From an uncultured Caldilineaceae bacterium (GTDB taxonomy: Bacteria > Chloroflexota > Anaerolineae > 4572-78 > J111): a DNA stretch of 53,551 nucleotides. The stretch is taken from the NCBI GenBank assembly GCA_964407935.1, contig CAYOXS010000001.1, forward strand, positions 15,324 to 68,874. Reading direction: 5' to 3'. Positions 16,588 to 46,150 of the stretch are shown here, in pieces. The position numbers were made by a program, and so were the translations under genes. The notes under the pieces are model-generated. The model did not search any database. It was not told the DNA's origin and saw only the letters and a program-made list of their open reading frames with translations. How positions within the stretch are numbered: the first letter of the stretch is position 1; each line of letters begins with the position of its first letter.

Positions 16588-17847
16588 CTACGCGGCAGGC
16601 TGCGACTTGAGGTGATAAACCGTGTGAACCAGCCAGATAACCGCCGTTACGGCACTGACCAGGCCCATTGTCAGGGCTATTTGATGGGGACTCCAGCCCA
16701 GGTTGTCGCTGGCCCAACCGGCCCACAATGTCGATGTTGCCGAGGCCAGAGTCATCATGGCCATATCAAAGGCGAAAACCCGGCCCAGGTAGCTGGGCGG
16801 CACTGTGAGTTGCAGCAGCGATGAGGCGTACACCCAGTTAATGCCGGTGCCGATGGTGCGAATAAACGTGGCCAGCAGTACAATGGGCAGCGACGCGCCC
16901 CAGCCCAGCAGTAGATAGCCGGCCAGCATCGCCAGATAGCCCACAAAAATGGCCCAATACATCGGCGATTTTTCGTCGCCGGTAATGCGGCGGGCCACCA
17001 CCGGGCCAAGCCCAGTGCCCAACCCCACCGCCAGATAGATTAGCCCCAGCGTGGCCGAGGCGTCGCGCCCCAGCGGAAATATCTGTTCCGCAAAGGTCAC
17101 CTGCACAATTTCAATCCCGCCAAAGGCCAGCGCCGAGGACGCTTTTAGCAGCGCTACCATCAGCGTGCCCGGCCGGTCCCACAGATAGCGCAGCCCGTCC
17201 ACAAACATGCCCCAGCCGGCACTGGCCGGCTGGTCGCCGGTATCGATAAGGCTGGCCCGGTCGCTGAGGCGGGTAATAAACCAGGCCGACAGCAGGAACG
17301 TGGCCGAGTCGATGACAAAGGCGCTGGTGATGCCCAGTGCCGCCGTCGCCAGCCCACCCAGCGCCGCGCCGAGCGCCAGCATGGTGCTCCAGGTAACGCT
17401 GGCCAGTGCGTTGGCCGTAACCAGATTCCGGTAATCGACAATGCCGGGCAGAATGGCGGCCCGGGTTGGCTCAAAAAAGGCGCTGATGCTCAACTGCAAC
17501 ACGGTGAGCACGTACAGCAGCCACACATTTTGCGGGGTGCGCACCAGCAAAAAACCGAGCACAATCACGGCCCGCAGCAGGTCGCTGGTAATCAAAATTT
17601 TGCGCCGGTCAAAACGGTCGGCCACCACACCGACCACCGGTCCAAGCAAAAAAGGCGGCAGCAGCCGGGCAATAAACAGGCCGCCAATGGCTAGCCCCGA
17701 GCCGGATAACTGGGCCACCAGTGCCGCCGAGGCGATCAGGTTGAACCAATCGCCCAACTGGCTGATAATCTGGCTGAACCACAGCCGCCGGAAATCGTGA
17801 TTGTGTTTGACCAGGGAGATGTAACTCTGCAACAGGGGCAGGCGCAT
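16588..17847 (-). CDS. MFS transporter
   Basis: The protein is multi-spanning and hydrophobic, with an MFS loop motif (ADRFDRRKIL). I prefer the ATG at 17847 (MRLPLLQSYISLVKHNHDFRRLWFSQ); the 57 codons of track extension up to 18018 are hydrophilic junk. Confidence 0.85.
   Translation of the reverse strand: MRLPLLQSYISLVKHNHDFRRLWFSQIISQLGDWFNLIASAALVAQLSGSGLAIGGLFIARLLPPFLLGPVVGVVADRFDRRKILITSDLLRAVIVLGFLLVRTPQNVWLLYVLTVLQLSISAFFEPTRAAILPGIVDYRNLVTANALASVTWSTMLALGAALGGLATAALGITSAFVIDSATFLLSAWFITRLSDRASLIDTGDQPASAGWGMFVDGLRYLWDRPGTLMVALLKASSALAFGGIEIVQVTFAEQIFPLGRDASATLGLIYLAVGLGTGLGPVVARRITGDEKSPMYWAIFVGYLAMLAGYLLLGWGASLPIVLLATFIRTIGTGINWVYASSLLQLTVPPSYLGRVFAFDMAMMTLASATSTLWAGWASDNLGWSPHQIALTMGLVSAVTAVIWLVHTVYHLKSQPAA
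17759..17811. repeat. Left copy of a 53-bp direct repeat (partner at 46064-46116)
   Basis: tggctgataatctggctgaaccacagccgccggaaatcgtgattgtgtttgac matches 46064-46116 at 52 of 53 positions by my alignment (mismatch 17803 g versus 46108 c). Confidence 0.85.
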
Positions 17848-18899
17848 AAAGGGTCCTCGTGTAAAATGAATATTACGAATTGAACTGTTTGAACTGTCAA
17901 ACACCTTTTGAGTACTATCTACCGTACTATTTGCAGCGTAGCACATGGCCCAACCGGGAGATTTTTTATTGCTGTCACATTTCGGCTGGTCCGACCCACC
18001 CGAGTAACTTGTCGGCATTGAGTTGGGCCGCTACCCCAGGCCGCCCTCTGGTAATTAACTCTGCCGCGATGAGTGTCTCATTTAACCGCCAGAAAAATTG
18101 ATAGCTGATCAACCGCTTATCCGGGGTCGTTGCCCCGTATTTGGTTTTGACCAATTTCCAAGTTGGCTTCACCAGAAAAACGCAACCTTGCTGAGTTTGT
18201 ACGTGGTGCAGCACCAGTGCCACCCATTTTTGTAGTGACTCCATGTCGGTGGCCCGCCACAGACCATAAACTCGCCCAGTTTGTCATCCGTCCCCCCCTC
18301 GAATTTTGACAATTCTAGCTGAATTTCAGGCCATTAACAAGACTTTGCATGACTGCTGGCCCCGGTCACAATCACCCTGAAGAATCATTGATTTTCTTCC
18401 AAGCCGGTTTATGCTACATTCAAATTCTTTTCCCCAGAGGTTGCTATGCGCCAAGCGATACCCTATTTACTTTGCGAGGTTGCTGTCTCAGTTCAACATT
18501 ACGCCCAAAATGTTGATCGTTTTCCTCGGTTACCCGCCTGAGTATCGCCCTGTTGTGCCTGCTGCCGATATTAGTGCCGTTGTGGGTACTAATGTTGTCC
18601 TGGCTGTTTCCCTCCGGCAATTACCGCCCGAAAGCAATCATGCCGATAACCTGGAAAGGTGGACCGCCGATGAACAGAGGCGACTTAGATTGTCACGCGA
18701 CTGGCGGGCGATTTTAGTAGCCCGGCGTGAACGTCACCCGCAATTGGCCGAGAATGAACGGCAGGAAAATTGGATTATTGTTCGACGCAATTACCGCCCT
18801 CAAATGGCGTACCGTTATTAACTTGGACCAAAAGCCAAAGGAAGGGTGGGAGATTGTCGAGCAGGGACTGATCGGCTCTGAGAAGAAGGGGGTAGATCA

Positions 18900-19095
18900 A
18901 TGATCGAAGGGCAAACTGCGCTCAAACGAGCCGAGGATACGCTGATCCGCTACCCCCGTTTTCGAGAACTGCACCAAGATATCAAGGAATGCCAGGAATT
19001 ATCCAAAATTGCCGGCGAACCTCAGTATATATCACTGAAAGGACCAACCGGAGCGGGTAAGACAACCCTGATCAAGGATTACGCCCGGCAATTCC
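18900..19095 (+). pseudogene. TniB/TnsC-like AAA+ transposition ATPase, N-terminal fragment only
   Basis: IRYPRFRELHQDIKECQELSKIAGEPQYISLKGPTGAGKTTLIKDYARQFP matches the usual TniB N-terminus plus Walker A. Similarity stops near 19095, where the ORF runs into the antisense strand of the RraA-like fragment. Confidence 0.5.
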
Positions 19096-19678
19096 CACTC
19101 GGCTATCTGAGCCTGGATAGCGACCACGCCCTCGCCATCACCCACAATAAGGTCACCTGGCATGACTAAAATCCCGGCGCAGCCAATGGGTACGTTCATC
19201 TCAAAGGGGTGGTGGGTGACAAATGAGGTTGTGGCGTGTGAAGATTTAATATAGGTAGGGAGATCCAATCCCTTAAAGCTGGGCGTGTCACGCAACCCAC
19301 CGTCTGTAACCACTCCGGCTGCGCCGCGCACCATAATACGGGTCCCCAAAATGTGGCCGAATGTTGCCGCCCGCACATCACCGCGAGCATCAATCACCAA
19401 CACGTCATCTCTTTCAATGGACTTCACGGCCAGCCGCTGCAGAGTCACGTCGTTGTCGTAATTTTATCGGCCAGGTCTTCACGAGCGGGGACGTAGCGCA
19501 GCGCAAGGGTGTAACCAATCATACGTTTGTTAGGGTGCAGGGGGTGTAGTCCCTGCAAGAAGATATTTTGGAAACCACGGTTGAGCAGTTGTGTCGTCAG
19601 CGTAGCCGTGGAAACCGAGCGCAGTTTTTAAAAAGCCTCTGCGCTCAGTTGTATAGTTCAGTTGGATAATTTTGTCAT
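19095..19678 (-). pseudogene. RraA-like / HMG-aldolase-like gene, decayed
   Basis: From the ATG at 19678 the frame reads MTKLSN*TIQLSAEAF*KLRSVSTATLTTQLLNRGF...RMIGYTLALRYVPARED, with two in-frame stops. After a frameshift near 19455-19475 it continues as VTLQRLAVKSIERDDVLVIDARGD...GVVTDGGLRD...PGDLIVGDGEGVVAI. The C-terminus is lost at about 19095. Confidence 0.65.
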
Positions 19679-19693
19679 TAGCTGCTGACCTTT

Positions 19694-20836
19694 CTACAGA
19701 CTATTTGGCACATCCACCCAACCTTGTCCCATTCGTATCGCCTCTATCACCTCTTGATAAATCCAGCCATCTTTAAAGGTTTGATATTCCGTCTTCCCCT
19801 GTCCGTGAATATCGGCCACAAATTCACGGGCCAGCTGAGTCCAGTTGCGTTGGGTATCGTCTTCGATGTTGGGCAGGGTCGCGGTGATGTGAGCGGGCAC
19901 AGGGATTTCCTGCCATTCACCGCCACGAGGACAGAGGTAAAGCGGCCCCTGCGCATAATGGCCTTTGATGTAGATGGCGGCCTCATCGCCATAAAAAGCA
20001 AGGTGGTCATCGGCAAAGCGGGGCTGTAAGCCGCTGTGTTTGAACAGGGCAGACACAGGCCGGCTTTGATGGAGAGCAGAGGTAATCCTGGCCATCACGG
20101 TGTAGGACCATTCCGCATCGGCATCTGCCCACTGCAACCCTGGCTCATCTGCCGATTTGGGAGCGAGTTTCTGTCGCTCCAGAAAATGGTGAACCCCGGC
20201 AACGAGCGGCGCCTGGGGCATATCGTTGCGGGTTTCGCCGTTGACTGTCGTAATTGTGCCGTTCAAAACATGCAGCACAATGGACAGTTTGTGGGTGAAG
20301 TTGTTGTTCAGCCGCCCGCCGCCCTGATCGAGCCGGTGCGACCAGCCAAAGGGGATCAGCGGGTCGAGGTTGAAGTGGGAGATACATTCCACTTCCTGGG
20401 CTTCGCCGATAGTCCCCTTGGCCACTAATTCCCTGGCCAGCAACGCATAGGGTTGGTAGCGATAGGAAGCGACGTAAACAGTTTTCACGTCCCTATTTTG
20501 GGCTTCTTGAAACATGGCTTTTGCCTGGGCTGCGGTTGCGGCCAAAGGTTTGTCGCAGTAAATGTGACACCCTTGAGCCAGTGCGGCCATCACCGGTTCA
20601 AAGTGAACCCCACCCGGCGTGCCCACAGCCACAATATCCGGCTGTAGTTCGGCCAGAGTTTGCTGCCAGTCGGTTGAGGCGTGGGGGATGTTCAGGGCGG
20701 CGGTCACCTGCTCAACCACGTCGCGGGTGCGGCCCGCCATCCCGACAACTTCCGCGCCGGCATCACGCAGGGCCAGGGCGTGTCCCTGCCCGGCATAGCC
20801 GGATCCCAAAATAAGCGCGCGTAATGGCTCAGACAT
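19694..20836 (-). CDS. Gfo/Idh/MocA-family NAD(P)-dependent oxidoreductase
   Basis: N-terminal Rossmann motif LILGSGYAGQGHALAL, with a family-typical length of 380 aa. It abuts the eda stop. Confidence 0.85.
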   Translation of the reverse strand: MSEPLRALILGSGYAGQGHALALRDAGAEVVGMAGRTRDVVEQVTAALNIPHASTDWQQTLAELQPDIVAVGTPGGVHFEPVMAALAQGCHIYCDKPLAATAAQAKAMFQEAQNRDVKTVYVASYRYQPYALLARELVAKGTIGEAQEVECISHFNLDPLIPFGWSHRLDQGGGRLNNNFTHKLSIVLHVLNGTITTVNGETRNDMPQAPLVAGVHHFLERQKLAPKSADEPGLQWADADAEWSYTVMARITSALHQSRPVSALFKHSGLQPRFADDHLAFYGDEAAIYIKGHYAQGPLYLCPRGGEWQEIPVPAHITATLPNIEDDTQRNWTQLAREFVADIHGQGKTEYQTFKDGWIYQEVIEAIRMGQGWVDVPNSL

Positions 20837-21511
20837 TTAACCTCCCCTGGCCTGTTTGATCCAGGCCAGCACGCGGGCGGCGTTTTCCGCAATCGCGTCG
20901 AAATCACCCGCCGCCAGCCGGTCTTTGCCAATCAGCTTGGACCCCATGCCTACGCAGGCGACCCCGGCTTTGAACCAGACGCCGATGCTCTCCTCGGTGG
21001 CGTCCACCCCGCCGGTAGGCATGATGCGCGTCCAGGGACAAGGCCCCAGCACCGCCTTTACAAAGCCCGGCCCGCCAACCGAACTGCCGGGGAAAACCTT
21101 CACAATCTCCACTCCCAACTCTTCGGCTGCCGAAATTTCGGAGACGCTGCCGCAGCCGGGCATATAGGCAATTTTGCGCCGGTTGCACAGCCGGGCTACT
21201 TCCGGGTTGAGCACGGGGCCAACCACAAAATTTGCGCCGGCAGCAATGTACATGGCCGCGGTGGGCGCATCAACCACGGAGCCAACGCCCAGAATAACCT
21301 TGGGATCAGCCTCGGCAAAGTGTTGCGAGAGTTCAGCGAAGACCTGGAACGCAAAATCGCCCCGATTGGTGAACTCAATCACCCTTGCGCCGCCGGCGGC
21401 GCAGGCCGCGACAACTTTTTTGCTAATCTCGACATCCTGGTTGTAAAAAACCGGCACTAAGCCAAGCTCAATTGTTGTATTGAGCACTTCAAGTCTGCTA
21501 AATCGAGCCAT
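20837..21511 (-). CDS. eda: 2-dehydro-3-deoxyphosphogluconate (KDPG) / 4-hydroxy-2-oxoglutarate aldolase
   Basis: 224 aa with LVPVFYNQD...GARVIEFTNRG...GVGSVVD...VKVFPG (Schiff-base Lys context)...MPTGGV, typical of Eda-family aldolases. Confidence 0.85.
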   Translation of the reverse strand: MARFSRLEVLNTTIELGLVPVFYNQDVEISKKVVAACAAGGARVIEFTNRGDFAFQVFAELSQHFAEADPKVILGVGSVVDAPTAAMYIAAGANFVVGPVLNPEVARLCNRRKIAYMPGCGSVSEISAAEELGVEIVKVFPGSSVGGPGFVKAVLGPCPWTRIMPTGGVDATEESIGVWFKAGVACVGMGSKLIGKDRLAAGDFDAIAENAARVLAWIKQARGG

Positions 21512-21527
21512 CGTATCCCTTCCTTTT

Positions 21528-22565
21528 CTAGCGCGATACCCGCCCGGAGGCGTCGCCCTGCATCAATTTTTTAACGTCGGCCACCGTCACCAGGTTGAAA
21601 TCACCGAAAATGGTGTGCTTTAAGCAGGAGGCGGCTACGGCAAAATCAAGGGCCTGCTGCGGGGCAGCGGGGTAGGTGCGCAGGCCGTAAATCAGGCCGC
21701 CCATAAACGAGTCGCCGCCGCCAACGCGGTCAACAATGTGGGTGATATCGAATTGGGGGCCGGTGTAAAATTGGCCGCCCTGCCACAGCACCGCCGACCA
21801 GGTGTTGTGACTGGCCGAAATTGATCCCCGCAGGGTGATGGCAATCGTCTTCAACGATGGGATTTGGCGGGCCAATTCGGCGCAGACATGGCGGTACTGA
21901 TCGGCTTCTACCTTGCCGGCGGTCACATCAGCTTCGGGTGCTTTGATGCCCAACACTTTTTCCGCATCTTCCTCATTGCCTATGGCCACATCGCAATAAC
22001 TGACCAGTTCAGGCATGACTTCGCCGGCGGTTTTGCCCCACTTCCACAAGTTCTTGCGATAGTTCAAATCACACGATACGGTTAAGCCCATTTCGCGGGC
22101 CGTTTGCACCGCTTCCAGGCACGCATCTGCCGCGCCCGCCGAAATAGCCGGGGTGATGCCCGTCCAGTGGAACCAATCGGCATCGGCAAAAGCCGCCTGC
22201 CAGTCAATCATGCCCCGTTCGATGGTAGCCAGGGCGGAATTGGCCCGGTCGTAAACCACTTTACTGCCGCGCTGAACCGCGCCCATTTCCAGAAAATAGA
22301 GACCCAGCCGGTCGCCGCCGCGCACAATTTTATCCACGCCGACGCCGTACTGCCGCAGAAATTGCAGGCAAGCCTCGCCCAAATCGTTATCGGGCAGGCG
22401 GGTGACAAGGTCGGTAGGAATGCCGTAATTAGCCAGCGACACCGCCACGTTGGACTCGCCGCCGCCGTAAATGACATCAAATGAGCGAGCCTGGCCAAAG
22501 CGCAAGAATCCCGGCGGCGAGAGGCGCATCATAATTTCACCAAAGGTTACAACTTTTTTAGACAT
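21528..22565 (-). CDS. kdgK: 2-dehydro-3-deoxygluconokinase (PfkB family)
   Basis: VVTFGEIMMRLSPPG...YGGGESNVAVSLANYG...VGGGDSFMGGLIYGL. AGGAG lies before the ATG. Confidence 0.85.
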   Translation of the reverse strand: MSKKVVTFGEIMMRLSPPGFLRFGQARSFDVIYGGGESNVAVSLANYGIPTDLVTRLPDNDLGEACLQFLRQYGVGVDKIVRGGDRLGLYFLEMGAVQRGSKVVYDRANSALATIERGMIDWQAAFADADWFHWTGITPAISAGAADACLEAVQTAREMGLTVSCDLNYRKNLWKWGKTAGEVMPELVSYCDVAIGNEEDAEKVLGIKAPEADVTAGKVEADQYRHVCAELARQIPSLKTIAITLRGSISASHNTWSAVLWQGGQFYTGPQFDITHIVDRVGGGDSFMGGLIYGLRTYPAAPQQALDFAVAASCLKHTIFGDFNLVTVADVKKLMQGDASGRVSR

Positions 22566-22585
22566 TTTTTATCTCCTGAGAACGA

Positions 22586-23560
22586 TTATGATAAATCAAC
22601 CAAATTCAAAGACCGGCGCAACGGGGCATAGCTTCCGCCCGATTCCTCTTTTACCGCCGTGTCGAACAGCCCGGTCAGTTCCGTGTACTCATCGGGAGAG
22701 AGGGTAATGTTGAAGGCGTCAATGGAAGCCTGTAATTGCCGCTGAGAGCTGACCCCCACAATAGGCGCAGTGACGCCCGGCGAATACCGCACCCAGGCCG
22801 CGGCCAATTGGGCCGGGTGCAGGTTGCGCTCGGCGGCAAACTTGTAAAATTGCGAGATGGACTCGCCGTATTTGTCCAACCAGCCGGCCACCCGATCATC
22901 GGTTTGCCCGCGCGAGTCTTCCGGGATAGGCTGGCCGGGGGTGTATTTGCCGGTTAACATACCCATTGCCAAAGAACGATAGGTGGTAATAGCCACCCGA
23001 TCCGCCACGGCCTGGGGAATGACTTCAACTTCGATGCCCCGCTCAAGCAAATTGTAGGGCACCTGATTACAGACCAGTTTGGCCCAGCCGTTGCGCCCGG
23101 CGATGGCGTTGCAGTGGGCCACCAGCCAGGCCGGAAAGTTGCAGCAGCCCACAAAGCGAGTTTTGCCCTGCTGCACCACAGTGTTGAGGGCTTCCATCAT
23201 TTCAACGGTGCGCATATTTTCGCGGGGCCAGTGGATCATGTACAGGTCCACGTAATCAAGCCGCATCCGGGTTAAACTTTCATCAATGCTCTGCAACACC
23301 CAATCAGCGTCGGTGGTTTTGGTCACTTTGGTGCCGATGAACAGGCCATCGCGTTTGCCCTTGAGGATATTGCCCAGAATTTCTTCTGTGCCACCCTGGC
23401 AGTAGGAGGCGGCGGTGTCAACAAAAGTGACGCCCTGCTCAATTGCCGCCGACAGAATCCGGTCAGATTCTGCCTGGTCGCAACGGTCGCCAAACATCAT
23501 GGTGCCCAGGCACATTTCAGACAGTTTTTCGCCGGTTGTTCCAAATTCAATGGTGTTCAT
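22586..23560 (-). CDS. Aldo/keto reductase
   Basis: LGTMMFG...GVTFVDTAASY..GGTEEILG...IGTKV...VDLYMIHWP are AKR signatures. Confidence 0.9.
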   Translation of the reverse strand: MNTIEFGTTGEKLSEMCLGTMMFGDRCDQAESDRILSAAIEQGVTFVDTAASYCQGGTEEILGNILKGKRDGLFIGTKVTKTTDADWVLQSIDESLTRMRLDYVDLYMIHWPRENMRTVEMMEALNTVVQQGKTRFVGCCNFPAWLVAHCNAIAGRNGWAKLVCNQVPYNLLERGIEVEVIPQAVADRVAITTYRSLAMGMLTGKYTPGQPIPEDSRGQTDDRVAGWLDKYGESISQFYKFAAERNLHPAQLAAAWVRYSPGVTAPIVGVSSQRQLQASIDAFNITLSPDEYTELTGLFDTAVKEESGGSYAPLRRSLNLVDLS

Positions 23561-23648
23561 TTTTTCTCCTGTAAAGATTAAGGGATTAGGAATTAGGAGT
23601 TAGGGAAATGCTAATTCCTGACCCCTGATTCCTTTTTTATTCTATGTT

Positions 23649-24848
23649 TTATGGTTTGGCGGGCGTGCCATCGGGCAGGCGAGCCTGAGTCCACTGGATG
23701 ACTTCATCCTGGCAGGGGTATTTGGCCGCCAGCTTTTCATTAATGTCGATGCCCAACCCCGGCTTGTCGTTGGGGTACAGGTAGCCATTCCTGATTTCCG
23801 GCATACCGGGGAACATGTCGTAGTCCAGGTCAGAAACGCGGAACATCTCCTGCACGCCAAAGTTGGGCGCCCACACATCCAGGTGCAGGTTGGCGGCGTG
23901 GCCCACCGGCGAGGTATCGCTGGGGCCGTGCCAGGCGGTGCGGATGCCGTACATATCGGCAAAGGCCGCCACTTTACGGGCCGGGGTAATGCCGCCCATC
24001 TGGCTAACGTGCATCCTGATAAAATCTATCAGCCGGTTGGCAATCAGCGGCTGCCACTCGTGCGGGCTGTTAAACAGTTCACCGATGGCGATGGGGGTGG
24101 CGGTTTGCTGGCGAAGGGTGTTAAACCAGGCAATCTGCTCCGGCGGGAGCACATCTTCCAGAAAGAATAGCTTGAATGGCTCTAAATCTTTGGCAAATTG
24201 CACGGCGTTTATGGGCGACAGGCGCTCGTGCGCGTCGTGCAGCAGTTCAATTTCATCGCCAAATTCGGCCCGGATGCGCTCCAGCAAACGCAACGTATCG
24301 CGCATGTAGGCTTTGGGGTCGTAGTATGCGCCATCGGGCGCGCCCTCCGGTTTGGCAAAGGCATTGGATACGCCGCCGTAGATGCCCAACTGAACACGCA
24401 GATAGCGGTAGCCCTGTTCCATGCGGGTGTGCATGTTGTCGATGACTCCTTCAACGGTGGGTGCGTCGGCATGAACGTAAACGTGGGCGGCCTCGCGGAC
24501 CTTGCCGCCTAACAGTTGATACACCGGCATGCCAGCCATTTTGCCTTTGATGTCCCACAGAGCCTGATCGATGCCGGAAACGGCGTTGTTTAGCACCGGG
24601 CCGTTGCGCCAGTAGCCGTTGACCATAGCCAGTTGCCACATCTCTTCAATGCGCGATACATCCCGGCCGATGACAAAGGGTTTGAGGTGTTTCTCGATGG
24701 CGGCGTGAACGGCGTGAAACCGCTGCTTAAAGGTGGCGCAGCCCAGGCCGTACAACCCCGGCTCAGACGTGATGACCTTAACAATGACCAACTGCGAGAA
24801 ACCCGGCTGGGTGAGAATGGTTTTGACATCTTTGATGGTAACGGGCAT
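23649..24848 (-). CDS. Enolase-superfamily sugar-acid dehydratase, ManD (D-mannonate/D-gluconate dehydratase) subgroup
   Basis: MPVTIKDVKTILTQPG...LVIVKVITSEPGLYGLGCATF...GIDQALWDIKGK. The length (399 aa) and N-terminal capping-domain pattern are typical of ManD-like enzymes. Confidence 0.8.
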   Translation of the reverse strand: MPVTIKDVKTILTQPGFSQLVIVKVITSEPGLYGLGCATFKQRFHAVHAAIEKHLKPFVIGRDVSRIEEMWQLAMVNGYWRNGPVLNNAVSGIDQALWDIKGKMAGMPVYQLLGGKVREAAHVYVHADAPTVEGVIDNMHTRMEQGYRYLRVQLGIYGGVSNAFAKPEGAPDGAYYDPKAYMRDTLRLLERIRAEFGDEIELLHDAHERLSPINAVQFAKDLEPFKLFFLEDVLPPEQIAWFNTLRQQTATPIAIGELFNSPHEWQPLIANRLIDFIRMHVSQMGGITPARKVAAFADMYGIRTAWHGPSDTSPVGHAANLHLDVWAPNFGVQEMFRVSDLDYDMFPGMPEIRNGYLYPNDKPGLGIDINEKLAAKYPCQDEVIQWTQARLPDGTPAKP

Positions 24849-24862
24849 GAAAACCTCTGTCT

Positions 24863-37302: not shown

Positions 37303-37352
37303 GATGCCCTTACTCAGAATAAGTTTTGCCGGTTAACCCCTAAAGGGTTTAA

Positions 37353-38099
37353 TTACGCAAAGTACAACCCGCCGTTGATTTCCATCAGTTCGCCGGTGAT
37401 AAAACTGCCCAGGTCAGACACCAGATAAAGGGCGGCATTGGCTACATCATCGGGGGTACCGCCACGTCCTAGCGGCGTTTTGCCTATAATGGCTTGTTGC
37501 ACGGCATCCGGGGTGAAGGTGTTGTGGAAGGTGGTGTTGGCGATGAAGCCGGGAGCTAACGCATTGACCGTAATCTTGCGCGGGCCGAGTTCTTTGGCCA
37601 GCCCTCGGGTGAACCCAATTACGGCTGCTTTCGAGGCCGAATAAATCACAGAACCGTTTCCACCGCCGTCATGGGCGGCCAGTGAAGACAAGTTGACAAT
37701 GCGACCGCCGTCTGGCATGTAGGGCAGCACAGCCCGGCTACAGTAAAAGGTACTGCTAAAGTTAACGTTCATGACGTTGTGGAAATGCTCGTCGCTCATT
37801 TCAGAGATGAGCACTCGGCCCAGCAACCCCCCGGCGTTATTGATGAGGATGTCGATGTGACCGCCCAATTTTTCAGCCGCTTCTGCCATAACCTTGTTGA
37901 CTTGCTCACTGTCTGTGGCGTCCAGGGGAATGCCGATAATTGTCTGGCCTTCCTCAGCGATTTTTTCAAATGTGCTGGTGAAATAGGTGGCAACAACCTT
38001 TGCGCCACAACGGGCCAGAGCCAGCGAATAGGCTCGCCCGATTCCAATGTTTCCACCGGTTACTACAGCAGTTTTGCCTGCAAGATTGATTTCCATCAT
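37353..38099 (-). CDS. Short-chain dehydrogenase/reductase (KduD/FabG-like)
   Basis: TGGNIGIGRA is the cofactor motif, NNAG is present, and YSASKAAV is the YxxxK catalytic motif. Confidence 0.9.
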   Translation of the reverse strand: MMEINLAGKTAVVTGGNIGIGRAYSLALARCGAKVVATYFTSTFEKIAEEGQTIIGIPLDATDSEQVNKVMAEAAEKLGGHIDILINNAGGLLGRVLISEMSDEHFHNVMNVNFSSTFYCSRAVLPYMPDGGRIVNLSSLAAHDGGGNGSVIYSASKAAVIGFTRGLAKELGPRKITVNALAPGFIANTTFHNTFTPDAVQQAIIGKTPLGRGGTPDDVANAALYLVSDLGSFITGELMEINGGLYFA

Positions 38100-38101
38100 A
38101 T

Positions 38102-39160
38102 TTATTCTCCTTTATGGTTTGAGCAGCGGGCAGTTGAAGCCCGTACAATTAATGTGGGTGATAGCATCTGGTGCCCCAGCGGTTCGGTGCAGGTATCCTG
38201 CAGGCGGCCAATCAGTCGCTTCACAGCCAGCCGAGTAATATCACGGATAGGCTGGCGCACGGTGGTGAGTGGTGGCTGGACAACTTCCGTTAAGAGAATA
38301 TCGTCCACGCCAACCACCGACACATCCTCCGGTATATTCAAGCCCAGGTCACGGGCGCCGGCATATACGCCAAAGGCGTACATATCGTTAATAGTAATCA
38401 TGGCTGTAGGGGGATTGGTTTTGCTGAGCATGTCGTGTGCTCCCTGTCGCCCCAACTCTACGGCTGTCGCGTCGCCAAAGTTACTGGCCATACCTTCCCA
38501 AACAAATTGAGGGTCAAATTCTACGCCGGCTTCCTCAAGGGCAGAACGATATCCTTCCAGGCGGTCCAGGCGGCTCACGGTACGGATTGGCCCCGAGATA
38601 AAGCCAATCCGCCGATGACCCAGCGCCAGCAAATGTTTGGTAGCTAATCTGGTGACCTGCACGTTATCAACGCCGATACTGTCAATAACAATCCGGTCGC
38701 TTTGTTGGGCAGTCCGATCAAAGGCAACAACGTGCAAGCCCTTGTCTATTAAATTTTCAAGATGCGTGTATTGCGCCAGTGATGAGCCAAAGATGATGCC
38801 TCTTACGCCGTAACCCCAAAGCTCTTCTGCATATCGTTGCTCACGGTCAGGGTTACGGTCGCTGTTTCCCAACAACACCTGGTAACCGCCGGCCAGGGCT
38901 ACCTCTTCTACCAACCGGGCAAAAACCCCATAAAAAGGATTGGCAACCGACGGCACAATCAACCCGATGATCGGGGCATGGCCGGTTTTGAGCTGTCGCG
39001 CGGCCAGATTGGGCGTGTAACCAAGCTGCTCAATAGCCTGCTGTATGCGCTCCTTTGTGCTGGGTTTCATCCGCTCAGACCGGCCATTAAGCACATTTGA
39101 GACACTGCTGGGCGATACCTTGGCCCGACGGGCCACATCGGCAATAGTTATCTTGTCCAT
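38102..39160 (-). CDS. LacI-family transcriptional regulator
   Basis: N-terminal HTH (ITIADVARRAKVSPSSVSNVLNG...AARQLK) followed by a periplasmic-binding-protein-like sugar-binding core. Confidence 0.9.
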   Translation of the reverse strand: MDKITIADVARRAKVSPSSVSNVLNGRSERMKPSTKERIQQAIEQLGYTPNLAARQLKTGHAPIIGLIVPSVANPFYGVFARLVEEVALAGGYQVLLGNSDRNPDREQRYAEELWGYGVRGIIFGSSLAQYTHLENLIDKGLHVVAFDRTAQQSDRIVIDSIGVDNVQVTRLATKHLLALGHRRIGFISGPIRTVSRLDRLEGYRSALEEAGVEFDPQFVWEGMASNFGDATAVELGRQGAHDMLSKTNPPTAMITINDMYAFGVYAGARDLGLNIPEDVSVVGVDDILLTEVVQPPLTTVRQPIRDITRLAVKRLIGRLQDTCTEPLGHQMLSPTLIVRASTARCSNHKGE

Positions 39161-39691: not shown

Positions 39692-40214
39692 TAACCCAAG
39701 TTGTGGGCTAATAAAGACGATCAAAGCTATGAGCCAACATAAACTGAATAACCTTCAATCAAAACCAGCAGTATTGGTAGCGTGAATATGCTTGGGTAAC
39801 ATACGTTCAACCAAACTGGCCGAGGTTTCAACAATCTGTTGAGGGACTTAAATTGTTCAGCCACCTGTTGAAACAAGGGGACGAACACAGGCTGTAACCG
39901 CTTAAACCGACGACTGAATTGGCTCTTGCTCAACATCCAGGGAATGTACTGGGGTGTTCTGAGCCACCGCCGGGCCTGAGCATAGTTGCCACTGCAGTAC
40001 AACATTGCTACCAGGGCTATGGTTAGCACTTCGGCATCATTCATTTCGCTTTGTTGGTGATCCTGTCGGTTCATATAGTTTAGAAACTCGTCACAGATGA
40101 CGTACAGTGTTATAATTTCAGTCTCCATCAGTCTTTCCTTTCTGGTTTTGTTTGGCAACTTGACCTTAAAGAAAGACTGATGGTTCTACAAATCTTTACC
40201 CACAACTTGGGTTA
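39692..40214 (-). mobile_element. Internally deleted IS remnant (about 523 bp) with both terminal inverted repeats intact
   Basis: taacccaagttgtggg (39692-39707) is the exact inverse of cccacaacttgggtta (40199-40214). The element encloses only an N-terminal transposase fragment. Confidence 0.7.
39727..40128 (-). pseudogene. Transposase N-terminal fragment (IS982/IS4-like by recollection)
   Basis: METEIITLYVICDEFL...MNDAEVLTIALVAMLYCSGNYAQARRWLRTPQYIPWMLSKSQFSRRFKRL resembles the N-terminal DNA-binding part of IS982-type transposases. No DDE catalytic region follows. Confidence 0.5.
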
Positions 40215-40334: not shown

Positions 40335-40946
40335 ATGACCTACCCCAAACGCCTCATCGAGGTTGACCTGCCCATCAAAGAAATCTCTGCCCACGCCCGG
40401 CGTGAGAAGTCCATCCGGCACGGACATATCTCCACCCTGCACATCTGGTGGGCGCGGCGACCGCTGGCCGCCTGCCGGGCGGTGATCTGCGCCGCGCTGT
40501 GGCCGGACCCCGCTGGCGACCTCTGCCCGCAATCCTTCCGCGAGGCCGCCGCCCGCATTCTGGCCGATCTTGCCGAGCAAACCCGCCGCGACGCCGCCCT
40601 GGCTGGGCTGGTGAAAGATCACTGGAGCCACTGGCACCGCACCAACGCCGCCACCTTTGGTGGCAAGACGGAAGGTGGAAAGACGAAGGCTGAAACAAAA
40701 AACTCTTCTGCCTTCAGCCTTCCGCATTCTGCCTTTACCACATTAGACCGGGTGCATCAAAGCATGCTGCTCTTTGCTGCCGGTCGCAGCGAAGCCCTGC
40801 GCCGCTTTTTGGTGGATGACGGCGTGGGCCGCGACTCGCGTTACTGGGCGCTGGCCAACGCGCTCAGCGCCCTTTACCCGCCCGCCACCGATGAAAAGCG
40901 CTGGGTCGATGGCGTGCTGGCGCGGAAGAAAGGACTTGGATTTTAA
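40335..40946 (+). pseudogene. DUF1156-type DNA methyltransferase remnant; only the N- and C-terminal ends are retained
   Basis: The N-terminus [49 protein letters not shown] is the DUF1156 signature. The ORF is 203 aa, whereas this family is normally about 900-1000 aa. It has no methyltransferase motifs (no FxGxG, no [DN]PPY). The end ...[34 protein letters not shown] looks like the family C-terminus. Confidence 0.7.
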
Positions 40947-40952
40947 CCGTAG

Positions 40953-41006
40953 ATCACGCTTGCAGCGTGACCGATTAGGAGCAGGGCGTCACGTTACAAA
41001 CGTGAC
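40953..41006. repeat. Paired-hairpin element, copy 1
   Basis: Hairpin 1 is tcacgct-tgc-agcgtga (40953-40969). Hairpin 2 is cgtcacgtt-aca-aacgtgacg (40986-41006). Confidence 0.8.
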
Positions 41007-41024
41007 GTACGAAAAGGTAGAATT

Positions 41025-41267
41025 ATGACCGAAGACACCATTACCCAACTCAACAACCGGATTGGCGTTTACGATCAGCAGCAAATTCTGATCTGGCAGC
41101 AGATGACGCCGGCAGAGCGGCTGGCCGTGGCCGATCAGGCTTATCACTTTGCGCTGGAAATGGTGCGCCTTACCGAGCGCCAGCGTCATCCCAACCTGTC
41201 GGAAGAAGAGTTCCAATGGCGGGTCATTCGCCGGATGCAGGGCAACCAACACCTGGGGAGGGAATGA
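41025..41267 (+). CDS. Small protein of unknown function (80 aa), antitoxin-like partner of the downstream NTase-fold gene
   Basis: The ORF overlaps the next gene as ATGA (41264-41267). No family was recognised. Confidence 0.55.
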   Translation: MTEDTITQLNNRIGVYDQQQILIWQQMTPAERLAVADQAYHFALEMVRLTERQRHPNLSEEEFQWRVIRRMQGNQHLGRE

Positions 41268-41869
41268 CAATGGCCGGCCCAGTATCGCCACAGGAATTGA
41301 GCGGATTTTTCGCCACGGTAGTGCAAAAACTGGAGCAGTTGTCGTTACTGTATATGGTCGCCGGCGGCTTTGCCGCCATCTTTTACGGCGAACCCCGGTT
41401 GACAGTGGACATCGACATTGTGCTTGACCTCAATACCAGCCACATCCAACCGTTGCTGGCCGCCTTTCCCTTTCCCGAATACTACCTGAGCGAAGAGACT
41501 ATGCGCGACTCCATCCGCCGCCGATTCCCGTTCAACATCATCCAGACCGCCACCGCCGCCAAAGTAGACCTCATCCCCTTGCCGGATGATGTCTTTAGCC
41601 GGATGGCCTTTTCCCGGCGGCAGCAGCTAGTTTTTGACCAGGCTGGGACGAAAGCCTGGTTCATCTCCGCCGAAGATATGGTGTTGGCCAAACTGTTTGC
41701 CTGGCAGCAAACCGGCTCCGACAAACACCTGCGCGATGTGAAAGGTGTACTGGTGACCCAATGGGGTACCCTGAACCTTGACCTGATTCGCCGCGCTGCC
41801 GCTCAACGTAATCTGCTGGCTCAGTTTGAGCAGCTCTACGAAGCCGCCCGCCGCGAAGTGGAAGATTAA
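41264..41869 (+). CDS. Nucleotidyltransferase-fold protein (AbiEii/MNT-like minimal NTase)
   Basis: MVAGGFAAIFYGEPRLTVDIDIVLD carries the GG...DxD NTase motif. I prefer the ATG at 41264, preceded by GGGGAGGG. Confidence 0.65.
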   Translation: MTMAGPVSPQELSGFFATVVQKLEQLSLLYMVAGGFAAIFYGEPRLTVDIDIVLDLNTSHIQPLLAAFPFPEYYLSEETMRDSIRRRFPFNIIQTATAAKVDLIPLPDDVFSRMAFSRRQQLVFDQAGTKAWFISAEDMVLAKLFAWQQTGSDKHLRDVKGVLVTQWGTLNLDLIRRAAAQRNLLAQFEQLYEAARREVED

Positions 41870-41891
41870 CGGCAGGGTCGCTCCGTAGGCT

Positions 41892-41928
41892 ACGCTTGTA
41901 GCGTAACAGTCACGTTATAAACGTGACC
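41892..41928. repeat. Paired-hairpin element, copy 2
   Basis: Hairpins tacgct-tgt-agcgta (41892-41906) and gtcacgtt-ata-aacgtgac (41910-41928), in the same order and orientation as copy 1. Confidence 0.8.
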
Positions 41929-42024
41929 TACATTTGATTATTTGGTTGGACTGACTTTGTGACAACCTTGACCGCCCAATGACGCAGCGCCTTTTTTGAA
42001 ACCATTCGCCAGCACCGGCACGCG

Positions 42025-42540
42025 GTGGCCTTGCAGGCGGCCTCGCAGCGGGGGCAATTGGGCCAGTGGACCAGCCTACTCACCGATGTGGTGATGACAG
42101 CCTGTCAATCGCTGGGCTGGCGAGCCTCGGCCAAAGGCCACAAGCTCGATCTGCTGCCGGTGGCGCGCCATGAATATCTCTCGCAGGATGTGATGGCTTT
42201 TAGCCGGGGTGACAAACGGTGGCGTTTTCCGGTGGCGGTAATGGAACTGGAAAACCGGCAGGAACTCGATTATATCGCCTATGCGTTGTGGAAGGTGTTG
42301 TGCGTGCGGGCCGATTTGCGGGTGGTCTACTGCTATCGCCGCAGCAGCGCCGAAGTGAACACGCTGGTGCAATTTTTGCAAAACGATGTTATTGGCGCGA
42401 TGGGTATCAGCGGGCGTATGGCGCTCGATGGCCAAACGCTGCTGGTGGTCGGCAGCCGGGCCGAGGCCGACACCTTTCCCTACGGCTTTTTCAAATGGTG
42501 GGCGCTGGAAGAAAATACGGGGTTATTCCGCTTACTCTGA
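42025..42540 (+). CDS. Hypothetical protein (171 aa), possibly nuclease-fold
   Basis: The ORF has a GTG start. An ATG at 41979 (MTQRLF) would join this frame if the T6 run at 41992-41997 were one base shorter. The D...ELE...K spacing (QDVMAF...VMELENRQ...ALWKVL) is only weakly PD-(D/E)xK-like. Confidence 0.45.
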   Translation: MALQAASQRGQLGQWTSLLTDVVMTACQSLGWRASAKGHKLDLLPVARHEYLSQDVMAFSRGDKRWRFPVAVMELENRQELDYIAYALWKVLCVRADLRVVYCYRRSSAEVNTLVQFLQNDVIGAMGISGRMALDGQTLLVVGSRAEADTFPYGFFKWWALEENTGLFRLL

Positions 42541-42599
42541 CAGGCTGTGGGCCTGGCGGGCGTGGATAAACAAAAGTTGCGGAACGGAGAGGTACTGCG

Positions 42600-42845
42600 T
42601 CACTGCGCCAGGGTTTCCAGCGCCGGCCGATACTGCTCAATAAACTCGGCCACCTGCCTGGCAAAATCCGGGTCAATATCCGTCGCGGCAACGGGCAGCG
42701 CTGCCGGCGCAATCACAATCTGGTTATGGGCCGGGTTCAAAGCAACCGTCACTTCGCTGTCCGGGGACAGGCCCAGCGTGGCCACCAGGTCATCCGGTAA
42801 AACAACCACCATACCCTGCTCGGTTTTCTGTAATTTACTGATCAT
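42600..42845 (-). CDS. AbrB/MazE/SpoVT-type antitoxin-like protein with no adjacent toxin
   Basis: MVVVLPDDLVATLGLSPDSEVTVAL fits the swapped-hairpin AbrB-type motif. The protein is 81 aa. Confidence 0.55.
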   Translation of the reverse strand: MISKLQKTEQGMVVVLPDDLVATLGLSPDSEVTVALNPAHNQIVIAPAALPVAATDIDPDFARQVAEFIEQYRPALETLAQ

Positions 42846-42960
42846 AACTCACCTTCATTCGTAAGAATGCTTAAAGCAAGTATAGCCATCAACCCGTTAA
42901 CGTCAAGGCGGTGAGGCAATTCCACCGCTAACCGCCGCCAACATAATTCAGGAGATTCTA

Positions 42961-45693
42961 ATGGCTCTCAAACCCTGGTATCACGTTGTTTATCCCCGTG
43001 AGGATTTGCGCGAAGGCAAACCGCTGGACGCCGCCGAATTTGCGGTGCATCTGGATCAGGTGCAGGCCGGCCATGCCCCGGCCGATTACCAAAACCCCAA
43101 ACTCTTCTTTGAACGCACCTACATGACCCAAAACCTGACCCTGTTGGCCAGCCAGGTTATCCGCCGGCTGTCGGGCATCACCACCGAAACCTCGGCGGTG
43201 TTTAATATGGCCACCCAGTTTGGCGGCGGCAAAACCCACAGCCTGACCCTGCTTTACCACCTGGCCCAAAACGGCGCGGCGGCCAATAGCTGGCAGGGCG
43301 TGCCGGATTTGCTGCAAAAAGCCGGCGTCAAAACTGTACCCAGCGCCAAAACCGCTGTGTTTGTCGGCCAAAAATTCGATCCTCGCGGCGGTGATGATGG
43401 CACTCCCTTGCGGCGGACTCCCTGGGGCGAAATCGCCTGGCAGTTGGGCGGGGCCGAAGGCTTCAATCTGTTTGCCTCGTTTGACGAGGCCGGCAACTCC
43501 CCCGGCGGGGATACCATCGGCAAGCTGTTTCGGCTGGTTAACCAACCCATTCTCATCCTGATGGACGAACTGATGAACTACATCAGCCGCTACCGCCGCA
43601 GCGGGCTGGGTGGCCAGTTCTACAACTTCATCCAGAACCTGTCGGAAGAAGCGCGCAGTCACAACAATGTGGCGCTGGCAGTCTCCATTCCGGCCTCGGA
43701 ACTGGAAATGAGCGCCGATGACCAGGCCGATCACGAACGCACCAAAAAGCTGCTCGACCGGGTGGGCAAGGCCATCATCATGGCCTCGGAGTCGGAAACC
43801 TCCGAGATTATCCGCCGACGCCTGTTTGAGTGGAACCCGCAGGCCATCGGCCAGGGCGGGAAGGTCATCCTCAGCCGCGATGCGTTAGCTGTCTGCAATG
43901 AATACGCCGATTGGGTGGTAGCCCATCGCCACCAGGTACCGGGCTGGTTCCCCGTAGATAACGCCCGCGAAATGTTCGCTGCCACCTATCCCTTTCACCC
44001 GGCCCTGATCTCCGTTTTTGAGCGCAAATGGCAATCGCTGCCCCGCTTTCAACGCACCCGCGGCATTTTGCGGCTGCTGGCCCTGTGGGTGTCGCACGCC
44101 TACCACACCGACCACAAAGGCGCTTACCGCGACCCGATCATCGGTCTGGGTACGGCCCCACTGGACGACCCCACCTTTCGCGCCGCCGTGTTTGAGCAGT
44201 TGGGCGAAGCCCGACTGGAGGTGCCCGTCACCACCGACATCTGCGGTAAAAAAGAATCGCACGCCATCCGGCTGGATGTCGAAGCGGGCGAGGCGATCAA
44301 AAAGGGGCGGCTGCATCGCAAAATCGCTACTACGATTTTCTTTGAGTCGAATGGCGGCCAGTATCGGCAGGGGACCACGGTGCCGGAAATCCGGCTGAAT
44401 GTGGCCGAACCGGATATGGACATTGGCAACGTGGAAACCGTGCTGGAAGAATTGAACCGCACGCTCTACTACCTGCATGTTGATCGCAACACCTACCGCT
44501 TCAGCCTGACCCCGGCCCTCAACAAACTGCTTGCCGACCGGCTGGCCACCATCAGCAGCGCCAAACTTAATGAACGCATCCTGACCGAAATCGGCAAGGT
44601 GTTTGGGCCGGGGGTTATCGAGCGGATTCTCTTTGCCGATAAAAGCAGCCAGGTGCCGGATCGACCCCGCCTGACAATGGTGGTCTTGTCGCCGGATTAT
44701 CCTATGCAGGAGCCGGACACTCTGGCGATGGTTGAGCGGATGACCAAAGAGTATGGTAGCTCGGCCCGCACCTACAAAAGCGCCCTGCTGTGGGTCATTG
44801 CCGAAACCGCCTCAACCCTCAAAGATGATGCCCGTAAAGTATTGGCCTGGGAGGATATTGAAGATGAAACGGAAACCGGCAGCCACAAACTGGATGAAAC
44901 GCAAAGCCGGCAATTGCGTGAAAGCATTCTCAAAGCCCGCCGCGATTTGAAAGAAACCATCTGGCGTGCCTACAAAAACGTCACCCTGTTGGATCGTAAC
45001 AACGAACTGCGGGTGATCGATCTGGGACTGGTGCATTCTAGCGCCGCCGACAGCCCCATGAATTTGATTGTCAATCGGCTGCGGCAGGATGGCGAAATAG
45101 AAGATGCCATCAGCCCCAATTTTCTGGATCGCAACTGGCCGCCGGCTTTCAAAGAATGGAGCACCCGCGCCGTGCGTGACGCCTTTTTCGCCTCGCCGCA
45201 ATTCCCCAAATTGCTCAATGCTGATGCAATTAAAGACACCATTGCCAAAGGGGTGACCAATGGCATCTTTGGCTATGTCGGCAAAACCGGCGGTGGTTAC
45301 AATCCGTTCTATTTTGCCACCGACCTGCCCACCTACGATGTCGAAATCTCGGATGATATGTTCCTTATCAGTCGGGTAACCGCCGAGGAGTATCTTCGCC
45401 GCCCCACTCGTCTGGAGATCACACCCGCCACAATAACTCTCACCGCCGGTGAAATTCACCAATTTAAGGTAACGGCGTACAATCAAAATAACCAGGCCGT
45501 CCCACTGGATTCGATTAAATGGGAGGCCACAGGGGGAACTATCGATAGTACCGGCAAATTCCGGGCCGGCCCAAACGCTGGGTGGTGGAACGCAGTTTCG
45601 CCTGGGCCGCCCGTTTTCGCCGGCTGGCGCGGGACTATGAGCGCTTGTCCGAAACCCTGGTCGGCCTGCATTTCCTGGCTTTTGCGATGGTGA
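42961..45693 (+). CDS. DUF499-type P-loop ATPase (BrxC/PglY-like family), with the 3' end replaced by IS debris
   Basis: [31 protein letters not shown]...FFERTYMTQ...[15 protein letters not shown] is the DUF499 N-terminus and P-loop. AGGAG lies before the ATG. The last Ig-like segment ([24 protein letters not shown]...[16 protein letters not shown]) breaks off at about 45572. After that point the frame reads a transposase fragment out of frame. Confidence 0.8.
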
Positions 45694-45734
45694 TGCTCAA
45701 ACAGGCTGTTCATCTTTTGGCCCAAAGTTCATAA
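45573..45734 (+). pseudogene. IS5/IS4-superfamily transposase, last 53 codons only
   Basis: [53 protein letters not shown] is the characteristic C-terminus of IS5-family DDE transposases (RWxVER.FaW...rRL.kDYErl). Confidence 0.8.
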
Positions 45735-46070
45735 CACGCTTTAGTAAATGAGGTTAAGGCAACCCGAGCCACTATCCAAAGCGAATTAGCCGAACTTATC
45801 AGCTTGCGCGATGAAACCGAAAAGACCAAAAACACACTTGATTATGCCCGGAATTTGCTTACCGAATTTGGGCGACGAATTACAGAAATTGACTTAACCG
45901 AGGATGAAATTTCAGCCATGCCTAAACCTGCCAGAATAGAAATACTCACCCGGCGGCAGCAATTGGTGAGAGCGTTAGTTGATCGAGTGGACTTTTATCC
46001 AAATAAATTGGTCATAACTGGAACAATTGGAAGTAAAACGGTACAAATTGACTGTATGTCACTTGGCTGA
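45735..46070 (+). pseudogene. Large serine recombinase, C-terminal coiled-coil/tail fragment only
   Basis: The frame is open from directly after the IS stop. It reads NEVKATRATIQSELAELISLRDETEKTKNTLDYARNLL...ILTRRQQLVRALVDRVDFYPNKLVITGTI, which resembles the coiled-coil and terminal strand of large serine recombinases and the 50977-51723 ORF. No catalytic or zinc-ribbon part is present. Confidence 0.55.
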
Positions 46071-46116
46071 TAATCTGGCTGAACCACAGCCGCCGGAAAT
46101 CGTGATTCTGTTTGAC
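46064..46116. repeat. Right copy of the 53-bp direct repeat (partner at 17759-17811)
   Basis: Same orientation, 52 of 53 identical by my alignment. Confidence 0.85.
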
Positions 46117-46150
46117 TAAGTTGACGTAACTGCTCAGAAATGACGTGTGC
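46064..46150 (-). pseudogene. Stranded 5' end (29 codons) of an MFS transporter gene
   Basis: From the ATG at 46150 the minus strand reads MHTSFLSSYVNLVKQNHDFRRLWFSQIISQ. The intact gene reads MRLPLLQSYISLVKHNHDFRRLWFSQIISQ. MFS similarity ends abruptly at 46064. Confidence 0.75.

Follow-up and report, generated by a model that had tools for sequence, protein, structure and literature searches.

The insertion locus

The DNA analysed here is a stretch of 53,551 nucleotides (hereafter the window) from contig CAYOXS010000001.1, assembly GCA_964407935.1, of an uncultured Caldilineaceae bacterium (Chloroflexota; Anaerolineae). It carries an intact gene for an MFS transporter and, at some distance from it, a second copy of the first codons of that gene. 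Between the two copies lie a cluster of genes for the use of polysaccharides, the remnant of a defence system, fragments of mobile elements and the last part of a serine recombinase gene. The features of the locus are listed in Table 1. We consider here where this segment begins and ends, which of the two gene starts is the native one, what part the recombinase had in its history, and how the segment may have entered the MFS gene.

The ends of the segment are marked by direct repeats, found both by reading the sites and by a repeat scan, which lie in the same orientation and agree at 52 of 53 positions. Their sole mismatch (17803 g against 46108 c) leaves an exact run of 44 nt (17759-17802), and the scan (repeat family D12) stretches the pair to 68 nt at 91% identity, with a spacing of 28,305. 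Exact repeats of 44 nt have an expected number of ~5e-18 in 53.5 kb (N^2/2 x 4^-44), and a chance origin of the pair is therefore excluded. The 36 nt that follow each copy, the start codon counted in, match between the copies at 20 positions. Read on the minus strand from start codons at 17845-17847 (left) and 46150-46152 (right), the two copies give MRLPLLQSYISLVKHNHDFRRLWFSQIISQ and MHTSFLSSYVNLVKQNHDFRRLWFSQIISQ, both of which are plausible MFS N-termini. A preliminary description of this DNA had reported the repeat with its single mismatch, the diverged stretch beside it and two versions of one N-terminus, and all three observations were borne out; the stranded right-hand start that it described also exists, with the correction that it ends at 46152 and not at 46150.

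Table 1. Features of the MFS locus and of the island, with positions in the window.
Feature	Position	Strand	Basis or remark
Intact MFS transporter gene, 419 aa, chimeric 5' end	16588..17847	-	Pfam MFS_1 and MFS_3
Left 53-nt repeat copy	17759..17811		With 17735-17758, the predicted attB of a large serine recombinase (LSR), uninterrupted and centred on TG 17759-17760
Imported MFS start (first 15 codons) with ~100-130 nt of imported upstream/promoter region	17803..17975	-	Likeness to L025/L026
Left-end debris, ~1.8 kb if counted from about 17848	17976..19693		Two open reading frames without family match, P-loop fragment, RraA-like fragment
Uronate-polysaccharide utilisation locus, 19.5 kb	19694..39160	-	Pfam
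IS982-family transposase, N-terminal fragment	39727..40158	-	NCBIfam NF033520, sub-threshold
Hma defence system remnant	40335..45560	+	PADLOC, Pfam, comparison with the intact loci L031 and L032
IS5/IS4-type DDE transposase, C-terminal tail	45582..45734	+	Pfam DDE_Tnp_1_2, 2.4e-8; abuts the recombinase stump
LSR stump, last 111 codons	45735..46070	+	Homology to full-length LSRs
Right repeat copy	46064..46116		TG 46064-46065 is the LSR crossover dinucleotide; putative attR-type P/B' junction
Stranded native MFS start (12 codons, ATG 46152-46150) and native promoter	46117..46281	-	34/36 against L001
Class II aldolase-family gene, native divergent MFS neighbour (right flank)	46282..46950	+	Pfam

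An empty site in a related genome

Related loci were collected by a scan with MFS alignments at one genome per species, which gave 22 loci, all from Anaerolineae (Chloroflexota). One of these, the metagenome-assembled genome (MAG) Bin_81R (L001), encodes an MFS protein that is 94% identical in amino acids to that of the window; its DNA aligns to window positions 6608-17826 and then, directly adjoining, to 46064-51014. In a three-way alignment, the order in L001 is the MFS body, one copy of the repeat core, a start and upstream region of the right-copy type, and the aldolase gene. When 17812-46116 is taken out of the window, what remains matches L001 in a single high-scoring segment pair of 16,178 nt at 92.4% identity, and the joint passes without discontinuity. 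In none of the 22 related loci are the island proteins encoded beside the MFS gene. The preliminary description had predicted an empty site in which the MFS body is joined to a 5' end of the 46117-46150 type and to the aldolase gene, and L001 is such a site, colinear over 16.2 kb. It had also named, as a result that would speak against its reading, the polysaccharide operon standing at this position in relatives without the repeats; such an arrangement was seen in 0 of the 22 loci. The comparison with L001 thus upholds the reading of the 28.3 kb between the repeats as an insertion, and identifies these 28,305 bp as a predicted genomic island.

Native and imported starts of the MFS gene

Alignment with relatives divides the MFS gene of the window into a 5' part of foreign type (nucleotides 1-45) and a remainder of native type (nucleotide 46 onward). 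The first 36 nt of the left-copy start match L025 at 31 positions and L026 at 29, against 18 in L001. Together with ~100 nt upstream, this start finds matches only in L025 and L026, whose MFS proteins are 71-72% identical to that of the window; the homology to L025 reaches ~17946 and takes in the common element ATGTGCTAyGCTGCAAATAGT. The promoter of the right copy, at 46206-46177, reads TTGGCC-18-TATACT with a TG (TTGGCC-18-TGnTATACT), and is common to L001, L029, L028, L003 and L030 (MFS identities of 81%, 80%, 78% and 75% for the last four, respectively). A homologue of the aldolase gene adjoins the MFS gene in L001 (95% aa identity) and in L029 (78%), and the intergenic region between MFS and aldolase in L029 aligns with that of the right copy. 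Because the closer relatives L029, L028, L003 and L030 carry the right-copy promoter, and L029 the aldolase neighbour as well, we take the right copy to be the native 5' end and promoter of this clade and the left copy to be imported. The preliminary description had proposed that the island supplied a surrogate 5' end and promoter and left the original 5' end stranded on its right; both proposals agree with these alignments.

The opposite polarity, with a native left copy and with the right copy and the aldolase gene imported, was briefly favoured, since the MFS neighbour in L025 is a homologue of the gene at 47147-48244 and L025 shares the left-copy promoter. It was dropped given the four closer relatives. 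The element ATTATGTAAATTyTACCA, upstream of the 47147-48244 gene (window 46951-47146), is also kept in L025 (322-682). As the aldolase gene sits between the 47147-48244 gene and the MFS gene only in the group of the window, L001 and L029, it may perhaps be an earlier acquisition at the same intergenic region. No exact-protein match was found for the MFS or the aldolase protein of the window. The stranded native promoter (46177-46206) is intact and points, via a fragment of 30 codons, antisense into the recombinase stump.

Recombination between the 53-nt repeats would yield exactly the structure of L001, and the island could in principle be ancestral, with the apparent empty site a scar of its deletion from that genome. 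Against this stands L029, at 81% MFS identity, which already has the aldolase gene beside the MFS gene and the same type of promoter. L028, L003 and L030 share that promoter too, and island genes are found at this position in 0 of the 22 related loci. We regard loss from L001 as extremely improbable.

A recombinase family that enters the MFS gene

On the plus strand, an open reading frame (ORF) at 45804-46070 stops at 46068-46070, within the right repeat; this 88-aa ORF has no Pfam match even at E = 10. The reading frame as a whole opens from the stop of the IS5-type tail and gives 111 residues. Its sole close relative is protein P0121, at 58% identity, and homology to LSRs was reached through P0121 and then through an exhaustive profile search, which extended to full-length relatives of 551-583 aa. 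Of the full-length relatives tested, 10 of 10 have Resolvase and Recombinase domains and most have a zinc ribbon. The stump in the window is 58-60% identical to P0121 and P0122 and corresponds to residues 435-543 of the 565-aa P0122; nothing is left in it of the catalytic, recombinase and zinc-ribbon domains, and position 46064 is exactly where the homology stops. P0121 and the profile search thus confirm the preliminary description, which had taken the ORF for the C-terminus of a serine recombinase. A scan of viral contigs with the recombinase C-terminus gave no match, which leaves a phage nature of the recombinase element without support.

Three independent LSR-MFS junctions (in the window, L023 and L027) and one symmetric attP (in L024) point to codon 30 of the MFS gene, precisely this site, as the target of the LSR family. 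On contig L023, from which P0121 comes, the recombinase ORF closes with ...IDCHSPG and a stop, and the MFS 5' end follows on the opposite strand (RHNPNYRRLWLSAVISQ up to the junction); the junction, at the ISQ codon, is the same as that of the window on both partners and lies in a different host lineage. L027 shows the same codon used in the other orientation: here a full-length LSR ORF runs on, without a change of strand, into the MFS body (LGDWFNLIAS...). Its host has TTG (Leu) at codon 30 where the window has CAG (Gln), which makes TT the central dinucleotide. This flip of orientation along with the dinucleotide (TG/CA against TT) fits a polarity determined by the dinucleotide on a symmetric attB.

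The LSR DNA of L024 is 84% identical to that of L023 up to the TG and unrelated beyond it, where the ORF runs on for 22 more codons. The TG centres a site, TTGATTGTCAATCACT-TG-AGTTACAGACAATCAA, that is symmetric at 17 of 24 positions, a score found at ~2e-5 of window positions, and this site is the predicted attP of the family. The half-sites of the MFS attB, GGTTGAACCA...TG...TGGCTGAACC about 17759-17760, are weakly symmetric, at 12 of 24 positions, a score reached at ~1% of window positions. At its inner edge the right repeat has the same crossover dinucleotide, TG, and from this comparison the edge reads as an attR-type junction (P-TG-B').

The recombinase ORF contains the attP, which falls 22 codons short of the stop (L024:1985-2035; L023:690-710; L027:3705-3725; window 46050-46070). 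Integration swaps the C-terminal tail of the LSR (ELQTIKLQYRLLIELDNMTIGA in L024) for host-encoded residues, namely G and a stop in the window and L023 and CWVIGST and a stop in L027. The C-termini of the family diverge directly after the attP point, and a subset retains a hydrophobic tail of the KLxY type. The MFS body at L027:3700-4066 lacks codons 1-30. Of the three integrated recombinase copies, two have been reduced to stumps by cuts at different places, and each of these borders on non-recombinase sequence; beside the stump of L023 (L023:1-186) this is the end of an unrelated ORF, transposase-like in appearance, and its counterpart in the window is the IS5-type tail. A tyrosine recombinase gene stands directly beside the LSR gene in L024 (downstream, 2083-3093) and in L027 (upstream, 1134-2081).

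The preliminary description had treated the 53 bp as an att core and had found a serine recombinase next to such a long repeat odd. The adjacency is explained by the targeting of MFS codon 30 by this family, and the LSR crossover is the dinucleotide at the edge of the repeat rather than the 53 bp as a core. Canonical insertion by an LSR is expected to leave on the left an attL, made up of the MFS body, the TG, P' and the tail of the recombinase, and to duplicate only the dinucleotide. In the window, the attB is uninterrupted at the left copy (17735-17785) and is followed by the imported start; an attR is present, the canonical attL is missing, and the 53-nt duplicate stands in its place. Searches of the window for a P'-like half-site, a recombinase tail or a second recombinase gave noise only. 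Serine integrases recombine attP with attB and accept no other pairing (PMC3783163); the duplication that they leave is normally just 2-5 bp. Because there is no P' arm in the window and the left attB is intact, and in view of this pairing rule, the 53-bp repeat was probably not made by the LSR acting canonically, and the idea that it is the canonical product of the neighbouring recombinase does not stand.

How the island may have entered

We hold with high confidence the joint conclusion that the island is an insertion, that its polarity is the one described above, and that the recombinase had the role set out here. For the manner of entry, the account that we favour, and judge to be somewhat probable, is a single reciprocal exchange with a circle that carried a fossil LSR junction and a fragment of an MFS 5' end. 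A circular DNA, itself presumably a product of aberrant excision, would have joined the MFS gene within its first 90 nt through a Campbell-type exchange. It would have carried ~190-220 bp of the MFS 5' region of another Anaerolineae lineage, with the promoter, the start codon and the first 30 codons. This fragment would have ended at the LSR crossover dinucleotide in a fossil attR (recombinase 3' end, TG, MFS 5' end), left over from an LSR element that was once seated in the MFS gene of an earlier host. The exchange would have fallen inside the sole stretch common to both molecules, with 44-53 nt of near identity. The base at 17803 is of the donor type, being common to L025 and L026 and different in L001 and the right copy, which would place the exchange to the left of 17803; the other bound would be the TG, where the MFS homology of the circle ends. 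As an outcome, the resident MFS gene would read from the imported start and promoter, with the native ones stranded beside the recombinase stump. Later decay would have fixed the island, as an IS5-type remnant truncated the recombinase, HmaB was internally deleted and HmaC was truncated.

A circle with a fossil attR would explain at once why a stretch is duplicated, why the gene has a surrogate start while its native one is stranded, and why P' is missing. The host-like composition of most of the island and the identity of its Hma DNA to that of other Anaerolineae (described below) fit a related donor. Our tentative inference is that the exchange was made by homologous recombination, to which we give somewhat less than an even chance; a non-canonical action of the LSR has a small share of the probability, and a tyrosine integrase that has since been lost is a doubtful agent.

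Several points weigh against this account. The two core copies agree with each other at 52 of 53 positions, which is above the agreement of the window with any orthologue (51 in L001, 47 in L003, 45 in L026, 39 in L025 and 38 in L029). The imported fragment would thus have to be identical to the host over 44 nt, yet L025/L026-like in the adjoining 45 nt, or a conversion step must be added. The fragment may already have been host-like over the 44 nt, for instance because it had once passed through a close relative, entering and leaving at different points; alternatively, heteroduplex repair or a later gene conversion may have homogenised the core copies. This difficulty applies equally to direct LSR catalysis on a hybrid site and to a lost tyrosine integrase. 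In addition, 44-53 bp of identity is a poor substrate for recombination of the RecA type. Neither a donor genome nor a circular form was found, and a donor search via HmaC homologues returned intact Anaerolineae Hma loci of which none lies beside a recombinase or an orthologous MFS gene. Finally, the repeat has its inner edge precisely at the LSR crossover, which is where direct catalysis by the LSR at the TG would put it.

It is worth asking whether the serine recombinase itself inserted the island at the TG, by way of a P' arm that mimics the 5' end of the target, has its own promoter and restores the gene. The left copy from the TG outward would then be DNA of the element, and the right copy would be wholly native. 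The position of the right repeat's inner edge, which is exactly the crossover dinucleotide of the family, is what such an event would produce. The right copy is indeed native from the TG outward (34/36 and 51/53 against L001), and the family repeatedly targets MFS codon 30. However, the attP of L024, which is in free form and belongs to a recombinase ~60% identical in amino acids to the window stump, is a symmetric P-TG-P' site without MFS similarity. A P/B' hybrid is effectively an attR, whereas serine integrases recombine only attP with attB (PMC3783163), and the 44 host-identical nt beside 45 nt of foreign type would still need explaining. We consider direct insertion by the recombinase unlikely. 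A serine-recombinase element, evolved or rebuilt by aberrant excision, whose P' arm copies the 5' end and promoter of the target is an idea of which we are rather sceptical.

Tyrosine integrases typically produce long att repeats and spare the target (106 bp at glnA, 60 bp in ICEBs1), and the 53-bp core may have been used by an integrase of this or another type whose gene was later deleted, in which case the serine stump would record a separate, older event. The tyrosine recombinase genes directly beside the LSR genes of L024 and L027 would suit this explanation, as would the heavy decay of the island. No integrase remnant was found in the window, either with Pfam on its ORFs or by tblastn with the L024 integrase, though one may have been lost by decay; and the repeat would end at the LSR crossover dinucleotide by coincidence. 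We think this origin improbable.

The window comes from a metagenome assembly, on a contig of 68.9 kb, and the relatives are MAGs, which raises the question of an assembly chimera, in which two co-occurring Anaerolineae strains were joined once via the conserved MFS core and a second time at some point within the island. The left junction does lie within a conserved block of 44 nt, and the island is compositionally mosaic. Two independent misjoins would be required, however, and the usual assemblers finish with k-mers longer than 44 nt. Moreover, LSR-MFS junctions like the one on the right occur independently in L023 and L027, and L001 is colinear with both flanks. An artefact of assembly is in our view very unlikely.

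Cargo and composition of the island

The island was mapped with Pfam, NCBIfam and PADLOC scans. The debris at its left end includes a P-loop fragment (18900-19169) and, on the minus strand, a C-terminal fragment of an RraA-like protein (19032-19448). The P-loop fragment is TniB-like, at 20.4 bits against a Pfam TniB threshold of 22.4, and the label of 'Tn7-like' that it had been given is not substantiated. The polysaccharide operon of the preliminary description is present, and its nature can be refined as catabolic (lyases, GH88, an ABC transporter, KDG/KDPG enzymes). Its enzymes include a GFO/IDH oxidoreductase, a KDPG aldolase, a PfkB kinase, an aldo-keto reductase, an enolase-superfamily enzyme and an SDR. 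The locus also encodes the GH88 and ABC transporter components, two heparinase II/III-like or alginate-type lyases and a LacI regulator, and a weak similarity to oligoalginate lyases was seen in it. Tandem repeats of 21-24 nt at 30949-31055 lie within a 688-aa ORF on the minus strand without a Pfam match (29090-31156); they probably code for a linker of low complexity within a binding protein that is secreted or a lipoprotein.

The Hma remnant consists, in order, of HmaB (DUF1156), an antitoxin-like ORF with an AbiEii-type nucleotidyltransferase (NTase; 41025-41869), an ORF at 42025-42540, and HmaC (DUF499). PADLOC coverage extends over positions 7-72 of the 967 of the HmaB profile and 1-818 of the 941 of the HmaC profile. 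A complete Hma system is not present in the window: HmaA is absent, HmaB consists of N- and C-terminal pieces, and HmaC is truncated and lacks its C-terminus. The 'DUF1156' ORF (40335-40946) joins in frame the first ~104 residues and the last ~79 of an HmaB methylase of ~1000 aa, which amounts to an internal deletion of ~800 codons (compare L031:4917-7925). The DNA of the remnant is 76-81% identical to other Anaerolineae loci. The NTase and the 171-aa ORF after it (41216-42540) have homologues at 76% aa identity in the same slot of the Hma locus of L032 (L032:9188-9955), and for this reason may regularly accompany this Hma subtype, as opposed to being a toxin-antitoxin cassette inserted into it.

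In GC content and tetranucleotide profile the island is a mosaic, and its cargo may have arrived in one event or in several. The segments at 17.85-19.7 kb (GC 0.51, r 0.67) and 26-33.1 kb (GC 0.47, r 0.58) stand apart; elsewhere the island is flank-like (r 0.90-0.92, where the flanks compared with one another give 0.93-0.97). Within the polysaccharide locus, the part with the ABC transporter (26000-33100) is markedly AT-richer and compositionally foreign relative to the enzyme genes on either side, and the operon itself looks mosaic.

Downstream of the MFS gene, the window codes at 622-9756 and 11912-16503 for sensors of several domains and very great length (1432 and 1607 aa), with internal repeats of 300 nt (family D1). 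Genes with GAF, PAS and histidine-kinase domains and response-regulator genes also lie downstream of the MFS gene in relatives (L028, L030).

Comparison with known elements and implications

Replacement of gene ends by islands is already well known, as is the insertion of serine-recombinase elements into coding sequences. What is less usual here is the combination of a replaced 5' end and promoter, a repeat bounded by the crossover of a serine recombinase whose site it is not, and an intact attB beside the island. ICEBs1 at trnS-leu2 has repeats of 60 bp and SPbeta-like phages at glnA have repeats of 106 bp. As with these elements, direct repeats bracket the island, a diverged gene end is supplied, the target stays intact and an empty site is found in relatives. 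Unlike them (they use tyrosine integrases and usually 3' ends), the island replaces a 5' end and promoter, no tyrosine integrase is found in the window, and the repeat ends at the crossover of a serine recombinase.

Among LSR elements, the SPbeta-like phage Goe14 has its attP within its own integrase ORF (bioRxiv 10.1101/2021.11.22.469490). The family described here resembles it and other LSR elements: the stump is homologous to LSR C-termini, the predicted attP lies within the recombinase ORF and integration replaces the last 22 codons. As in LSR elements generally, the family enters a specific codon of a host gene and has a symmetric attP around a dinucleotide. Canonical LSR insertion duplicates a crossover of 2-5 bp and disrupts the gene, whereas the window has a 53-bp repeat, an intact left attB, no P' and a repaired gene.

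Phage lambda provides a precedent at gal and bio, where an aberrant excision of the specialised-transduction type may be followed by Campbell integration through the carried host DNA. The proposed circle is similar in that it would lack one att arm, carry flanking host DNA, integrate by homology and leave a partial duplication. It differs in that the homology is ~50-90 bp from the orthologue of another lineage, the island has no detected phage genes, and the course of events is inferred. SCCmec elements, moved by CcrAB, have repeats of ~15-18 bp at the 3' end of rlmH which are the recombinase's own sites. They share with the present island the association with a serine recombinase, the position at the end of a conserved gene, the direct repeats and the sparing of that gene; the repeat of the island is longer and is not the site of the recombinase.

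In this uncultured lineage of Anaerolineae, the locus shows cleanly, and with its polarity settled, how an inserted island can replace a gene's 5' end and promoter. If an element with a P' arm that mimics its target did exist, it could enter codon 30 by its recombinase or by homology without killing the MFS gene, and would be a serine-recombinase route to the long repeats and gene-end replacement thought typical of tyrosine integrases; it would demand recombination of a hybrid P/B'-type site with attB. For automated callers of att sites and islands, the locus is a caution that a decayed serine-recombinase junction can mimic an att repeat of the tyrosine type. It also defines an LSR family for which an attP is predicted in L024 and a natural attB is conserved in an MFS gene, and these site pairs are testable as recombination tools. 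For the organism itself, the uronate-polysaccharide cargo suggests that the island altered the carbon niche of its host.

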